A DNA stretch of 45,302 bases from Candidatus Zixiibacteriota bacterium (GTDB lineage: Bacteria; Zixibacteria; MSB-5A5; CAIYYT01): assembly GCA_040235515.1 (NCBI GenBank), contig JBECKX010000203.1:1-45302 (forward strand), written 5' to 3'. This document shows positions 12,001 to 18,000 of the stretch, piece after piece (position 1 is the first letter of the stretch; every line of letters begins with the position of its first letter). A program made the position numbers.

Positions 12001-15000
12001 CTCGGTGACGGCAGCCGCCGGGGCGACGGCATACATGCCGGCGTTTTGATCCCAGAGAGAAGTAAGCCAGTCGGCAGCCATAGCGGCGGGCAAGGTACCG
12101 CCGATTACCCAGGCGAAGAAGCGGCTGCAGGGCGTGCCGAGCAGACCGCCCTCAGCGGCTTTCACCAACTCATCGATGATGGTTACCGGATCGACGCCCT
12201 CGTCTTTCAATTCGACGAAGAACCGGGCGCGCAGTTCCTCCGGGGTTGTTGTGGTTGCCACGGAACGATCGTTGATCCGGAATAGAAAATCCTCGGCGTG
12301 CTCCAGGACACGCTTGAGGACAGCGTAATGTTGTGGGTCGGTTCTCATGTGGTATATCCGTCACTCGCTTTCACAGGTTGACCAGCTATGTAGTGGGATT
12401 GTGCGGCACGGCTGGATGAGAGAAGCGCATCAGGGGTGTCTGCCGCGAGCCGGGTGTTGTAGATTTCCTGAGCCTGCCAGCGGTGCTCACCGCGCTTCTC
12501 TGCAAGGTGGTATAAGGGACTAAGGGTTGCATGGCGGGGAAGCTACGGCAACATGTAAGATTCGAAAACAGTTTTTTGAGCCGAAGATGAGGCGTCAAAC
12601 TCGAGATAGAGAAGTGTTTGGAGCGGGGTGGGCAATTCGTTATTTTCTGTGCCGCCGTGAATGAGAGAGGAACAACGCGAGATCATGAGTTATAGATTCG
12701 ACCCACGTGAAAACTACGAGCAAAGCCGAGAGAGGGTAGGTTGGGTGCCGCTTGAAGAGGCGACGCCGGAGACTTACGAACGGATCGGCTACAAGTCGGG
12801 CCTTGAAGTCCATCAGCAGTTAAAGACGAAGAAGAAGCTGTTCTGCCGTTGTCCGGCGGGGATTTACCAGGACCCGGATGACTATGATGCAGAGGTTATC
12901 CGGCATATGCGTCCTACTTTGAGTGAGCTGGGTGAGTATGACGGGACGGCCTTGATGGAGTTCAAGACCAAGAAGAACGTGATCTATCGCATCAAGGGGC
13001 AGACGGCGTGCACGTACGATATCGATGATACTCCGCCGTTTCCGCTCGATCGCGAAGCGCTTGAGTATGCTCTGAAAATCTCGCTGATGCTGAAGTTGAA
13101 CATCGTGGGTGAGCTTCATATCACGCGCAAGCAATACCTTGACGGCAGCATTCCAACCGGGTTTCAGCGCACCGGGATCATCGGGATCGAGGGTGAGATT
13201 CCACTGCGGAACAAGAAGGTGCGAATCATGCAGTTGAGCATCGAAGAGGATGCTTGCCGGGAGGTCTCGGATGTCGGGCACTGGCGGATATTCATGACAG
13301 ATCGGCTGGGAATGCCGTTGATAGAGACGGTGACCTATCCGGAATTGCTTACACCCTGGGAGTGTGCTGAGGCGGCGCAGTATCTTCGTTTTCTGGCGCG
13401 CAGTTCGGGGGTCGCTCGTGTTGGAATCGGCGCGGCGCGAGAGGATGTCAATGTGAGCGTGCGCGGCGGGACGCGGGTGGAGATCAAGGGGGTGTCCCAC
13501 ATCAAGTTGATCCCGCGATTGACGCATACGGAGGCATTCAGGCAGGTGGCGTTGTTGCAAATTCGGGATATCTTGAGCGAGCGGATAAAGAACCGGGATG
13601 AGTGGCAGATAGCGAGCGCGGAGTTAGAACCGACGCTGCTACCGCGTGAACATAAGGCTTTCCAGCGGCTACGGGCACGGGGTTGGATCGTTGCGGCGGT
13701 TAACCTGCCGAAGTTTGGCGGCATACTCTCCTACTTCACGCAGCCGGACAAGATGTTTGCGAATGAACTCAGCGATCGGCTGAAGGTGATTGCGTGCCTG
13801 GAACGGCCGAACCTGCTGCACTCGGAGCAGTTCTCGATCGAGAATGAGCAGGTGGAGCTGGAAGCGATCCGCAAGTTGCTTAAGTCCGCTGACGAGGACG
13901 CGCAGGTGGTGGTGTGGGGACCGCCGGAGGATGTCGAGACCGCGATCGGTGTAATCGAAGAGCGCTGCCGGCTGGCGATGGAGGGGGTTCCGAATGAAAC
14001 GCGCAAGTCGCTGGCGGATGGTACGACGGTGTTCGAACGAGTGTTGCCGGGACCGGATCGGATGTATCCCGATACCGATAGTGCGCCGATTCCGATTCGC
14101 GACAGTCTGATCGAAGATATTCGAAAAACTTTACCACTCGAAGTTGTCGATCGGGTGAAGCAGTTGAGGGAGTGGGGTGCGCCGGAGGACACGCATACTT
14201 ATATCCTGCGCAATAACCTGGTGCCACTGATGGAGCGGATCATCGCTGATTGCGGACATGAGCCGAAATTCGTGTCGACCTTTCTCGGGCACACGCTCAA
14301 GAGCATTGAGGGACGAATCAAGGCGGGCACCGATTTCTCTTACGAGCGGGTTTACGAGCTATGTCGCTTTGCCCAGCGGGAGGGGCTGACACGGGATATT
14401 CTGGCGAAGATGCTGCCGGTAGTGTATCGGCATCCCAATATGCATTTTGATTCGGTGCTGACGACGATCGAGTTCCACCCGCTGACATTCGACGAAGTGT
14501 TGGAGTTTCTGCCGTCCCTGGTGCGCAAGGCGAAGGCGATCGGGACGACGGCGAATTCGGGTGCTGATGTGCGCTGGATCATGGGGCAATTGCGGCGGAA
14601 GGCATGCGGCAACGTGGCTCTCCCGGCATTGAGGAATCGTGTAGAGGAGGAGCTGAAGCGTGGCTGATCTATTTAAGGGATACAAGGGTGCGGCGCGGGG
14701 AGTCCTCACCGATTTCAATGTGCGGGTTTGGGGGCAGGTGACCGTCGAGTCGAGCCGGGGGACCTTTAAGGGTATCCTGCTGCCGAGGAGTGAGAATGAT
14801 GACGACCAGCACCTGGTGTTAAAGCTGCCGACCGGTTACAACGTGGGGGTTGCAGTTTCGACGATCACCAACATCGTTGAGGATGGGTACAAGGAAGCTC
14901 ATTATAAGATTCCTGAGAAAGAATTTCCGGTTACGCCGAACCTGCCACATGTCAAGCTACTGGGCACGGGCGGCACGATTGCATCGCGGCTTGATTATCG

Positions 15001-18000
15001 CACAGGGGCGGTGATTCCGGCATTCTCGCCGGGTGAGCTTTATGGCGCGGTACCGGAACTAGCGGATATCTGCAACCTGACAACAGAGAAGCTGTTTGCG
15101 GTGTTCTCGGAGAATATGGGACCGGAGCAGTACAAGACGCTGGCGGTTGCGATCGGGCAGGAGATCGAGAAGGGGATTGATGGGATTGTGATCGGGCATG
15201 GTACTGATACAATGCACCATACGGCCTCGGCGTTGGCGTTCATGATCCAGAATTCACCGATTCCGATCGTGATGGTTGGCTCGCAGCGATCATCCGATCG
15301 GCCGTCATCTGATGCGGCACTCAACCTGATGCATGCTACCAAGACGGCTGCCGAGTCTGATATTGCTGAAGTGATGGTGTGTATGTTCGGGCCGACCTCC
15401 GATGAGTATGGCTTGCTGCACCGGGGGACACGGGTGCGGAAGATGCATTCATCATACCGTTCGACGTTCAGGACGATTGGGGATGTGCCGTTGGCGATGG
15501 TGGATCGCAAGAAGATCACGCCGATCAAGCAGAACTACAACCACCGCCGCAAGGATCGCAACGTCAAGATTACGCCGACATTCGAGGAGAAGGTTGCGAT
15601 AGTTTACTACTACCCGAACATGCAGCCCGACATTATCGAAGCGTTGATTGATAATGGTTACAGGGGGATCGTGATCGCGGGCACCGGGTTGGGGCACATC
15701 AATAAGCCGCTCTACCCGGCGATCGAGAGGTGTCAGCGTGAGGGGATCGCGGTCTATATGACTGTGCAGACACTGTGGGGTTTTGTGCATATGTTCGTGT
15801 ATGACACCGGTCGTGATCTGATGGCTAAGGGGATCATCCCGCTGGGGAATATGCTGCCGGAGGTAGCGTATTGCAAGCTTGGTTGGGCGATGGGGCAGAC
15901 GCATGACCTGGAGAAGGTGAAAGAGTTGATGCTCACCAATATTGCAGATGAGATTACCGACCGCGAACCGCACAATGGATATTTGATTTTCCAGGGTGGC
16001 GTACCGGAGATCGAGCGATTCTTGCGGACGGTGCATAAGTAGGGGTGGGCTTGGCGTTTGACGGTCCGCACGAGGTCAGGTATACCTGGCGCGTGATATG
16101 AGCTGGCTTCACCTCGCTGACGCGGCAACTAAACATTCTGCCGTGCCAGATCGTTATCCTGATTGAACTTATTATCTGACAAAATGGGAGAGTATGATTT
16201 GATCTTGCGAGCGCTTAAGATACTCGGTCTGGTTGTGCTTCCGCAGTTTCTTGGAGTGCACACCATAGTGGCGCAACCGTGTCCCCTGGAATTCAAGATT
16301 GAGGCAGAGCAGGCTGAGGTCGAACCATACGAGAGTGTCTGGGTACGTTTGAGCCTGACCAACATTGGCGACACTGCGATCGATGTCAGACCATTGCAGC
16401 CCGATCTGTGGTACGTCGACGTGTCAGTGCTCGACTCCGTGGGGGATGAGCTTTACTACACAGGTTTACACGGGGAGATAGGAGGAGATGGTGAATGGAT
16501 CACTCTCATGCCAGACACCACCCTGTCGCGCTGGATTGATATCTGCGAGACTCACGGTCGGCATCTGTCCAATAATGTTGGACTATCAGTGATGCCAGCG
16601 GGTTTCTATCGCTTGGTGTGCAGATTCTCTGGCGGACGATTCGGATGGATAGAATCGAATGAAGTGACTTTCCGGGTGAACTCCGAGGCCACTGATTCCT
16701 TGCTTTGGCAAGAACTCCGTGAGGTTGATGTCCAGTTCAATCATGCCGAGTTTCGACGGAGTAAGGTGGCGGGCTATCTTAAGCTGGCGAATGAACACCC
16801 GACCAGTACGCTGACCGAGCGAATATTGCTCTTGCTGCAGGTTCTTGACTCCGAGTCGGCGGTCGAGTACGCGCATCGCATCGTTGAAAACTTTCCAAAC
16901 TCGCACGATATTGCGCGGTGCTTCGGTTACGTCTACTGGGTGAGCAATAGGGAGCACGATGCCGGCATCGTCCACGATTTTTTGCGAGTGGTGCGCGCCT
17001 CGTACGATTCCACGCAGGCAGGCAGGCTGGCCACGGAGCTGTTGTCTCCGGCAAACTCAGGGGGGAACATAAGCAAGATTCTGGATGCGTTTCAGTAGGG
17101 TGTGGGCAAGACCGATTGGTGCTTGATGCTGAGGTCAATCAAGCCTCACCCCCGGGACCCGCTCCTTGCGGATTAGTAGGAGGCCAGGCATTCCTGCCTG
17201 ATCGGCTACGCAACAACTTGCCGTGGTGCGAAGAGTGGTAACAGTACCTGTCGCGTCGACAAATCGGCAATTGTACGGAGTGCTTGCATAAAGTGACAGC
17301 ACTCCCATCTTAGGAATAAATGAGTCACACCTTCCTCTCCCAATTTCCCTACACCTGCAAACTTGACTGGGGTGTGCTTGGTGCTAAGCGTGCTGCTGAA
17401 CGGGGAGAGGTAATTTTGATTGTGGATGTATACAGCTTTTCGACCACGGTTGCGTATGCCGCTGCGAGAGGAGCTTCCGTGATACCGTGTGGCAAGTCTG
17501 ATAACCCAGTTGAGATTGCGAAAAGTGTGGGAGGCACTGTGGTTGTGAATCGCAGGGATGTTCCGACGTTGGGCAAGTATTCGCTTTCACCGGAGACGAT
17601 GCTTAACGCTCAGCCGGGTGAGAAGATCATTCTGCCATCCCGCAACGGTGCTAACTGCAGTCGGGCGGCTCAAGGTGCTCCGCACGTAATTGCCGGGGCG
17701 TTCGTCAACTTAAAGGCAGTCGGAGAGTGCGTTAACAAGCTGCTGGAGACCGAGAAATGCGGAGTGACTATCATCGCCTGCGGCGAACGTGAGAAGGAAG
17801 ATGATCACCAGCTTCGTGTTGCGATTGAGGATTATTTGGCAGCCGGCGCGATTGTCTCGATGGTCAAGGGGGAAAAGTCGCCTGAAGCGGAGGTTTGTGA
17901 GGGAGCTTACCTCAGCAGGCGATCCAGGCTCAAAGAGATCCTGTGGGAGTCGACCAGCAGCCGGGAGTTGCGTGAGGCAGGGTTTGCGCGGGATGTGGAG

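Follow-up and report, generated by a model that had tools for sequence, protein, structure and literature searches.

A gatE-gatD pair in a bacterium that also has GatCAB, GlnRS and AsnRS: a candidate accessory tRNA-dependent amidotransferase

The gatE-gatD pair in a 45,302-nucleotide stretch of DNA (the window) from a sediment bacterium of the Candidatus Zixiibacteriota may form a working two-gene operon for an accessory tRNA-dependent amidotransferase, acting most likely on Glu-tRNA(Gln). We give this reading, of which a long residence of GatDE in the host phylum is part, about an even chance of being right. GatDE is regarded as archaeal, as the genome-wide survey's note had said, and reviews up to 2022 describe it as archaea-only. 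The host is a bacterium with GlnRS, and the description of GatDE as an archaeal stand-in for GlnRS does not fit it.

The earlier report of full-length GatE and GatD beside GatCAB, GlnRS and AsnRS was borne out, with all of these enzymes scored in the same genome. The two reading frames encode 668 and 460 aa, the gatD start overlaps the gatE stop by 8 bp, and both products passed their equivalog cut-offs. GatE scored 467.5 bits against NF003107 of NCBI (a narrow pass; cut-off 456) and 394.5 bits against TIGR00134 (cut-off 319.55), clearly higher than the best GatB model (only 130.3 bits; cut-off 338). GatD scored 515 bits against NF003217 (cut-off 310) and 509.5 bits against TIGR02153 (cut-off 324). 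GatCAB was represented by GatB (563.8 bits), the adjoining GatA (601.9 bits) and GatC (104.2 bits), GlnRS scored 741.5 bits and AsnRS scored 479 bits. The genome also has one GluRS gene, two AsnB-type genes that pass the cut-off and, in agreement with the note, an AsnRS-like paralogue (357 aa, under every cut-off) and a single tRNA-Gln gene among 47 tRNAs. On paper GatDE is redundant here, as the enzymes alongside it should make it unnecessary.

The host pair has the two subunits and the identical domain order of archaeal GatDE, for which Methanothermobacter thermautotrophicus (PDB 2D6F, with tRNA-Gln) and Pyrococcus abyssi (PDB 1ZQ1) were the references. Host GatD contains, in order, GatD_N (residues 26-72), Asparaginase (98-287) and Asparaginase_C (311-424), and aligned at full length with 2d6f_A (phmmer 1e-119, residues 7-436). 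Its Thr/Thr-Asp/Lys residues are kept: T106, T182, D183 and K261 align with T101, T177, D178 and K254 of 2d6f_A, which we take to be the archaeal GatD catalytic set. Catalysis by GatD has been described as a Thr nucleophile acting with Thr-Lys-Asp (PMC2330236). GatE aligned with 2d6f_C (phmmer 4.8e-91, residues 39-665), and its Mg ligands are also kept. H51, E195 and E222, at positions invariant among 36 bacterial GatE, align with His15, Glu157 and Glu184, the Mg ligands of the kinase site in M. thermautotrophicus GatE (PMC2330236).

All four GatE domains (cradle, AspRS-like insertion, helical domain and YqeY-like tail) were present in the AF2 model, which matched archaeal GatE (2d6f_D, Z 27.6) over residues 37-588. 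In this model the insertion (GAD, absent from GatB) spans residues 312-443 and matched AspRS insertion domains (6wom_A over residues 315-443, Z 11.4; 1c0a_A, Z 10.8). The helical domain and tail, expected to read the D-loop, occupy residues 493-668; GatB tails aligned with them as far as residue 668, and further matches were 3tl4 (Z 7.5) and YqeY (8xje_B, Z 5.8), values that are middling for helical folds. The insertion and tail have diverged past Pfam detection: GatB_N was the Pfam domain found in GatE, neither GAD nor YqeY was matched in it even at E ≤ 10, and weak matches to both were seen in intermediate bacterial relatives. Also unlike archaeal GatE, the bacterial proteins share a conserved N-terminal extension of ~30 residues, and solved archaeal chains align from residue 38/39 of the query onward. 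Met9 (12685) may be the true gatE start, because conservation with bacterial relatives, which align from residue 8 or 9, begins there. GatE evolves faster than GatD, with cross-phylum identities of 52-65% vs 72-85%.

The divergence of the insertion and tail and the conserved extension would also suit a shift of substrate, in which bacterial GatDE acts on another misacylated tRNA or in a tRNA-dependent amidation outside translation; in that case GatDE would not duplicate the GlnRS next to it. We regard such a shift as possible but rather unlikely. It is opposed by the complete tRNA-binding architecture and the match of the model to archaeal GatE, by the persistence of weak GAD and YqeY matches in intermediate relatives, and by the lack of a conserved third gene or dedicated tRNA next to the pair in 81 loci; the data name no alternative substrate.

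In those 81 loci, gatE lay immediately upstream of gatD on the same strand in 71, and one natural GatE-GatD fusion protein was found (P0044). In the window, the position of an SD-like run, GAGGAGGAG, suggests translational coupling of the two genes (Table 1). The gap between gatE and the divergent gene is presumably the promoter region of the operon; no sigma-70-like sites were called in it, and counts of such sites over 12200-16400 were not above those in shuffles. Both genes are under strong purifying selection, with dN/dS of 0.02-0.07 for gatE and 0.01-0.03 for gatD in pairwise comparisons within the host genus and with its sister genus, some of them with unsaturated dS (0.26-0.77). Both are intact, with catalytic residues and domain set kept.

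Table 1. Features of the gatE-gatD region, in window coordinates
Feature	Position	Strand	Description	Basis
PLP-dependent decarboxylase gene	10924-12348	minus	divergent to gatE	
Intergenic gap, 312 bp	12349..12660	.	between gatE and divergent decarboxylase gene	ORF map
gatE	12661..14667	+	668 aa from first ATG; predicted tRNA-binding kinase/amidotransferase subunit	
SD-like run GAGGAGGAG	14644..14652	+	within gatE 3' end, 7 nt before gatD GTG	read from sequence
gatD	14660..16042	+	460 aa, GTG start; predicted asparaginase-type glutaminase subunit	

The surroundings of the pair are ordinary bacterial, as had been stated: it lies mid-contig between polA and coaE on one side and hrcA and dnaK on the other, and its GC is even (0.561 for the pair vs 0.553 for the window). 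The host assembly is of metagenome type and fragmented into 218 contigs; the genome is 100% complete with 0.16% contamination. Of 151 sampled genomes of the host phylum, GatD turned up in 103, single-contig chromosomes included, and the other 48 (about a third), in which it was not found, are mostly smaller genomes. Close relatives occurred in at least 597 bacterial loci or species genomes, with identities of 72-85% for the best 80 of these, and close GatDE relatives are present in a cultured bacterium, Ancylomarina longa. The GatD tree groups by phylum, and its 43 Bacteroidota rows require just 2 changes. The spread of GatDE within phyla is wide and largely vertical.

These data bear on two further explanations. 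Archaeal DNA wrongly binned with, or wrongly assembled into, a bacterial genome, as a fragmented assembly might allow, has a negligible chance of being the source of the pair: its mid-contig position, even GC, the low contamination, the orthologues in the phylum and the bacterial best relatives all stand against it. It is highly improbable that an old transfer left the pair behind as a relic that is decaying or has no function. Redundancy on paper and the phylum genomes without GatD could be read in that way, but the reading frames are intact, the catalytic residues are invariant and identity stays at 72-85% across phyla; the dN/dS values, which include the unsaturated pairs, bring a relic close to refuted.

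The survey's note was partly supported. Its gene inventory stands, and GatDE looks functional, to judge from the kept catalytic residues, the modelled GatE domains and dN/dS of 0.01-0.07. The novelty it attached to this particular organism was overstated: the host situation is not rare, since GatD occurs in 103 of the 151 phylum genomes and GlnRS, AsnRS, GatCAB and GatDE are all present in 48, and NCBI equivalogs already name the proteins. Its caveat that homologues sit unremarked in about 3,000 genomes proved to be the main point. The host copy belongs to a very large group of bacterial GatDE.

GlnRS was present in 95 of the 103 GatD-bearing phylum genomes, and GatD was commoner in genomes with GlnRS (95/127) than in those without (8/24). 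GatB was present in all 24 genomes without GlnRS, and no genome among the 151 was without both. None of the phylum genomes sampled depends on GatDE alone for Gln-tRNA, which sets them apart from archaea. Five GatDE genomes of other phyla had GlnRS (5/5) and no GatB (0/5). Their GlnRS, the positive association within the phylum and the absence of any genome dependent on GatDE for Gln-tRNA favour a shifted substrate, as does a conservation of GatD (72-85% across phyla; dN/dS 0.01-0.03) that is very strong for a supposed back-up. Being without GlnRS, eight GatD-bearing phylum genomes must make Glu-tRNA(Gln), and the canonical GatDE substrate exists in some hosts.

GatDE might instead amidate Asp-tRNA(Asn) and so make asparagine on the tRNA, which is the task of GatCAB in Thermus, Deinococcus and Bdellovibrio, cells that have no asparagine synthetase. 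We consider this quite improbable. The first pair would not exclude tRNA-Asn, because U1-A72 is common to tRNA-Asn and tRNA-Gln in most hosts, and 45 phylum genomes have GatD without GatB. In addition, PMC4206432 records bacteria that retain GatCAB next to both synthetases (T. thermophilus, Deinococcus radiodurans and Bdellovibrio bacteriovorus); the host resembles them in having a seemingly redundant amidotransferase beside GlnRS and AsnRS, although theirs is GatCAB. Against this, AsnRS was found in 148 of the 151 phylum genomes, and the host itself has GatCAB, the AsnB-type genes and the AsnRS-like paralogue. GatD was commoner with AsnB (75/94 phylum genomes) than without it (28/57), accompanying AsnB rather than replacing it as in those GatCAB cases. 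Of 19 phylum genomes with neither AsnB nor GatB, nine also were without GatD, and no link between GatD and a missing asparagine synthetase was found in the 151 genomes, AsnB being the synthetase counted. The GatE insertion domain is present and, according to modelling, would clash with ND-AspRS (PMC2330236).

The accessory role on Glu-tRNA(Gln) would require mischarged tRNA-Gln. The host GluRS has an Arg aligned with R358 of T. thermophilus, a marker that is uninformative because it is invariant in 90/90 GluRS, including 23 from genomes obliged to mischarge. Among the aligned sequences, whose sister pairs are too diverged, no GluRS column separated must-mischarge from must-not genomes, and this comparison gave no sign of host GluRS mischarging tRNA-Gln.

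When tRNA-Gln genes were compared, we observed that A1-U72 replaces U1-A72 in the host genus and sister genus, each with a single tRNA-Gln, which is new in this analysis. The host and nine relatives carried A1-U72, and the other 20 of 30 tRNA-Gln read from GatDE hosts carried U1-A72, as did those of two other GatDE-bearing phyla. Host tRNA-Gln has two extra D-loop bases and is otherwise bacterial (G73); both host tRNA-Asn retain U1-A72. Archaeal GatDE recognises A1-U72 of tRNA-Gln and rejects tRNA-Glu through extra D-loop bases, and bacterial GatCAB depends on U1-A72 and does not accept an additional D-loop base (PMC2330236). Since most GatDE hosts have U1-A72, the archaeal A1-U72 rule cannot be a general one for them. 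Within the family the 1:72 pair has flipped two or more times, and no GatE residue uniquely tracking the flip was found, which again favours a shifted substrate.

In the host, A1-U72 is an unexpected point in favour of a division of labour, since the pair matches what archaeal GatDE recognises and not what bacterial GatCAB requires. It is conceivable, though we think it distinctly unlikely, that the host and sister genus run an archaeal-style split next to GlnRS and AsnRS, with GatDE for tRNA-Gln and GatCAB for tRNA-Asn. In such a split GatCAB could no longer use tRNA-Gln because of the A1-U72 switch and the extra D-loop bases, host tRNA-Gln having lost both features that GatCAB needs.

For the accessory route, we infer as follows which substrate is used, how it is coupled to GluRS and what it does in the cell. 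GatE would bind the mischarged tRNA at its acceptor end, T-arm and D-loop and phosphorylate the side-chain carboxylate with ATP/Mg; GatD would release ammonia from Gln or Asn, and the ammonia would move to GatE to complete amidation. This is the same three-step chemistry as that of the GatCAB present in the same genome, which has amidase-type GatA and GatC instead of asparaginase-type GatD, and whose GatB, a paralogue of GatE (GatB models reach 130 bits on GatE; GatB chains, Z 19.5-21.8), is without the AspRS-like insertion. Running parallel to GlnRS, GatDE could clear Glu-tRNA(Gln) formed by a GluRS of relaxed tRNA choice or sustain Gln-tRNA supply when free glutamine is scarce, while tRNA-Asn would be served by GatCAB.

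In favour of this accessory role we counted the equivalog passes, the kept residues and domains, selection, gene pairing, the phylum-wise GatD tree, the GlnRS-less GatD hosts (8/103) and the host A1-U72. Counted against it were that none of the 151 genomes needs GatDE for Gln-tRNA, that GatD is commoner with GlnRS, the GlnRS of all five GatDE genomes from other phyla, the U1-A72 of most hosts, the two extra D-loop bases, the diverged tRNA-binding parts of GatE and the third or so of phylum genomes without GatD.

According to PMC9499178, no archaeon has GlnRS; the host differs in combining GatDE with bacterial-type GluRS and GlnRS. The bacterial GatDE family is already known by name in NCBI models, while reviews still say archaea-only. 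If true, the split would mean that bacteria re-invented the division of labour between two amidotransferases, and the repeated 1:72 flips would be a living record of tRNA-enzyme co-evolution.

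The gatE-gatD pair was found to be real, intact and under selection; its observation in the genome-wide survey's note was borne out by the ORFs, the equivalog scores, the bacterial flanks and the even GC content. The two ORFs overlap by 8 bp. GatD exceeded both of its cut-offs (NF003217, 515 vs. 310; TIGR02153, 509.5 vs. 324), and GatE exceeded TIGR00134 (394.5 vs. 319.55) and, only narrowly, NF003107 (467.5 bits vs. 456); the top GatB model score on GatE was only 130 bits. The source genome (3.59 Mb, 218 contigs) had 100% completeness and 0.16% contamination, the neighbors were common bacterial genes (polA, coaE, a PLP-dependent decarboxylase gene, hrcA and dnaK), and GC content was uniform along the window. 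Mis-binning does not explain the pair, and we consider an artefactual origin of any kind scarcely credible. A promoter and terminator scan of region 12200-16400 gave a number of sites not above that in shuffles. Of the other window features listed, the ORF directly 3′ of gatD was not kept beside gatD at other loci.

Features of the window
Feature	Position	Strand	Description
ORF	8213-9469		418 aa; no Pfam/NCBIfam match at E ≤ 0.001
ORF	9821-10840		339 aa; no Pfam/NCBIfam match at E ≤ 0.001
gatE	12661-14667	+	ORF, 668 aa, ATG start
GAGGAGGAG run	3′ edge 7 nt ahead of gatD GTG	+	sequence
gatD	14660-16042	+	ORF, 460 aa, GTG start
ORF	16163-17098		311 aa; no Pfam/NCBIfam match at E ≤ 0.001
ComB-type 2-phosphosulfolactate phosphatase family protein	17320-18066		Pfam 8.6e-26; under all NCBIfam equivalog cut-offs

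GatD and GatE are a textbook pair. In GatD, Pfam detected the GatD_N domain and the two asparaginase domains. The full-length alignment with Methanothermobacter (M. thermautotrophicus) chain 2d6f_A (1e-119) put T106, T182, D183 and K261 at the catalytic Thr and Thr-Asp-Lys positions of the archaeal enzyme. GatE aligned with 2d6f_C over residues 39-665 (4.8e-91), with H51, E195 and E222 as the counterparts of His15, Glu157 and Glu184; these three residues were present without exception in 36 aligned bacterial GatE sequences. PMC2330236 sets out the scheme of a catalytic Thr with a Thr-Asp-Lys set for GatD and reports that mutating His15, Glu157 or Glu184 abolishes both kinase and transamidase activity.

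In GatE, Pfam recognized GatB_N alone. Because neither GAD nor YqeY was found by Pfam, even at E ≤ 10, the GatE structure was predicted from the 36-sequence alignment (mean pLDDT 81.6, pTM 0.73) and the model was then searched. Its best match was archaeal GatE (Foldseek, 1zq1_C, 3.7e-40), and residues 37-588 matched 2d6f_D (VIA, Z 27.6). For residues 312-443, the match was to the bacterial AspRS insertion domain (Z 10.8-11.4); residues 493-668 tracked GatB tails and matched 3tl4 (Z 7.5) and a YqeY protein (Z 5.8) more weakly. By these regional matches the complete GatE domain set (4/4) is present. For pairs within the genus and the sister genus, some with unsaturated dS (0.26-0.77), dN/dS was 0.02-0.07 for gatE and 0.01-0.03 for gatD, that is, both genes are under strong purifying selection. 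That the pair is a relic appears very improbable.

Bacterial GatE carried a conserved N-terminal extension of approximately 30 residues (consensus FDPxxNYxxTR...GYVPRK; window 12661-12775, residues 1-38), with a helix predicted at 15-26 with high confidence; alignments to solved archaeal GatE chains began at query residue 38 or 39. Since conservation begins at Met9, the true start of gatE may lie at 12685. One protein of 943 aa (P0044) was a natural fusion, in which GatD_N and the two asparaginase domains came after an N-terminal GatE catalytic part.

GatD scored above its cut-off in 103 of the 151 genomes of the phylum sample, which was identical in each search. When one genome per species was scanned, at least 600 stretches with close GatD relatives were obtained, at least 597 of them confirmed, and the matches listed were bacterial loci only. 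The best 80 of these relatives were 72-85% identical and, by record titles, belonged to Zixibacteria, many Bacteroidales, Cloacimonadota, Aminicenantes, Calditrichaceae and Ignavibacteria; the cultured Ancylomarina longa strain T3-2 was among them. GatE relatives formed 621 clusters (50% identity) at E ≤ 1e-30. A FastTree phylogeny of GatD (80 rows, without archaeal sequences) mostly tracked phyla, with two changes for the 43 Bacteroidota rows. The locus is one unremarkable member of a very large GatDE branch in bacteria, which annotation pipelines name already. The survey's note had implied that the organism is special; as one member of this branch it is not, and the description holds only for its tRNA-Gln with an A1-U72 first pair.

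In 71 of 81 loci, gatE lay immediately 5′ of gatD on the same strand. Upstream room was absent in three of the other 10 and present in seven, and in four of these seven genomes gatE was found at another site in the genome. In one Bacteroidales subclade (loci L173, L188, L163 and L203) gatD was not preceded by gatE, which was elsewhere in the same genomes; in the single chromosome of G153 the two genes were approximately 3.7 Mb apart. No conserved neighbors other than gatE and gatD were found across the 81 loci.

Profile scores agreed with the survey's inventory of GatDE, GatCAB, GlnRS and AsnRS in one genome. The source genome encoded GatB (563.8 bits), an adjoining GatA (601.9 bits), GatC, a GlnRS without a YqeY tail (741.5 bits), AsnRS (479 bits), a single GluRS, a bacterial-type AspRS and two AsnB-type genes above cut-off. 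ARAGORN found 47 tRNAs, including one tRNA-Gln(UUG), two differing tRNA-Asn(GUU), one tRNA-Asp and two tRNA-Glu.

Several further observations were made in this genome. A 357-aa protein (L007:1408-2481, contig C199), a class-II synthetase core that lacks an anticodon-binding domain, reached no curated cut-off. Its closest family was AsnRS (179.6 bits, cut-off 414); similarity to archaeal-type asparagine synthetase A was weak (78.8 bits, cut-off 368). A 4.2-kb contig (C209) held three tRNA genes, among them a tRNA-Glu(CUC) that appears to have a G1.U72 wobble, with A73 and an acceptor stem of eight pairs by ARAGORN (L019:138-211; G000:C209:2837-2910), and a tRNA-Leu(AAG), the anticodon of which is unusual in bacteria; this contig may represent a mobile-element or foreign tRNA cluster. 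The two tRNA-Asn(GUU) genes (G000:C31:19599-19673 and G000:C44:29378-29451) were quite unlike each other, although both had U1-A72 and G73, and the acceptor stem of the former (UGGGGUG) was identical to that of tRNA-Gln in the sister-genus genome G015.

Occurrence of enzymes of Gln-tRNA and Asn-tRNA formation in the phylum sample
Enzyme or combination	Genomes	Threshold
GlnRS	126/151 (127 at E ≤ 1e-60)	curated cut-off
GatB	89/151	curated cut-off
AsnRS	148/151	curated cut-off
GluRS	148/151; single copy save in one	curated cut-off
GatD + GlnRS + GatB + AsnRS	48/151	
GatD + GlnRS, without GatB	45/151	
GatD + GatB, without GlnRS	8/151	
Neither amidotransferase	17/151	
Neither GlnRS nor GatB	0/151	

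Every sampled genome had GlnRS or GatB; therefore, GatDE was the sole route to Gln-tRNA in none of the 151. GatD was more frequent with GlnRS (95/127) than without it (8/24), counts that are descriptive because the sampled genomes are related. In the five GatDE genomes covered from other phyla, GlnRS was always present and GatB always absent. We predict, with roughly even confidence, that Glu-tRNA(Gln) remains the substrate of GatDE, which would serve as an accessory route next to GlnRS. A shift of the enzyme to another substrate seems rather unlikely.

Amidation of Asp-tRNA(Asn) by GatDE is improbable. AsnRS was almost universal in the phylum sample, GatD was more frequent with an AsnB-type gene (75/94) than without one (28/57), and nine of the 19 genomes without AsnB and GatB also lacked GatD. 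A role in asparagine synthesis was thus unsupported in the phylum by the AsnRS, AsnB and GatD counts, which cover the AsnB type only, AsnA being outside the survey.

An accessory route through Glu-tRNA(Gln) would involve the charging of tRNA-Gln by GluRS, for which Sekine et al. in 2001 reportedly described a rule based on R358 of T. thermophilus GluRS. The GluRS set comprised 90 matches (30 loci and 60 further regions); of the 148 genomes with a match, it represented 89. Arg occupied the R358 position in all 90, including 23 from genomes without GlnRS, and was therefore uninformative as a predictor of mischarging. No alignment column divided these 23 GluRS, which must mischarge, from 16 that must not. 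GluRS of sister pairs with and without GatDE were at most 82% identical. A distinct GluRS subtype was observed in seven genomes of two genera without GlnRS (L082, L083, L085, L088, L090, L091 and L094), with gltX scores of approximately 465 bits vs. 500-570 for the others and a different segment around the R358 equivalent; six of the seven also had GatD.

The tRNA-Gln of bacteria normally has a U1-A72 first pair. The sole tRNA-Gln(UUG) of the source genome (L018, G000:C13:2643-2717) had A1-U72 and G73 instead; in the same genome, both tRNA-Asn had U1-A72 and tRNA-Asp had G1-C72. BLAST with tRNA-Gln gave matches in 145 of the 151 phylum genomes, only 10 of which extended to base 1. Among 30 tRNA-Gln genes read (L018 and relatives L021-L049), A1-U72 was found in 10 and U1-A72 in 20. 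The former were those of the source genome, a congener and eight of nine sister-genus members, the same ten in which BLAST had reached base 1. The tRNA-Gln of G015 differed from those of its congeners G108 and G009 at positions 1 and 72 only. Mapped on the GatE tree, the 1:72 state required two changes in every one of 200 bootstrap trees, so there were at least two flips of the pair, or a flip followed by a reversion. The variable D-loop part of the source-genome tRNA-Gln had three bases, vs. one in most relatives, and across the 30 genes D-loop length varied independently of the flip. Simple loss of constraint is not an obvious explanation of the flip, because three genomes without an amidotransferase (G008, G062 and G105) kept U1-A72 and a short D-loop.

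According to PMC2330236, bacterial GatCAB recognizes U1-A72 positively and rejects an extra D-loop base, whereas archaeal GatDE recognizes A1-U72 and rejects extra D-loop bases. By these rules, GatCAB would be expected to reject the tRNA-Gln of this lineage, the first pair of which fits GatDE. GatDE hosts mostly had U1-A72, including one Bacteroidales and one Aminicenantes genome; in other phyla, tRNA-Gln was sought by BLAST with the source-genome gene, which matched in three of five genomes and recovered two genes. Nine A-type GatE sequences (from genomes with A1-U72) were compared with those of G015 and G125, G074 being left out with 112 residues on its contig. Nine columns split the two sets, and in all nine the A-type residue recurred in other phyla, so that no GatE residue uniquely tracking the flip was found in this comparison. 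What is new here is the tRNA side, that is, the A1-U72 tRNA-Gln.

GatDE is termed "an archaeal signature protein" in PMC2330236, and reviews as late as 2022 treat it likewise, with arguments on the last common ancestor, on tRNA-Gln/GatDE co-evolution and on the absence of GlnRS from archaea resting thereon. The titles and abstract openings covered, which exclude subscription journals, held no report of bacterial GatDE; the bacterial branch has been overlooked in the literature. Large, old, strongly conserved and accompanied by GlnRS, it does not fit the archaea-only picture, and the reviews need correcting. The survey's framing of bacterial GatDE as a test case was fair: the question that arises is what role a Glu-tRNA(Gln) amidotransferase plays in a cell with GlnRS, and it is open to experiment in the cultured host Ancylomarina longa. 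Because the tRNA-Gln of close relatives differs in the first base pair only, the present lineage is a natural experiment on that pair.
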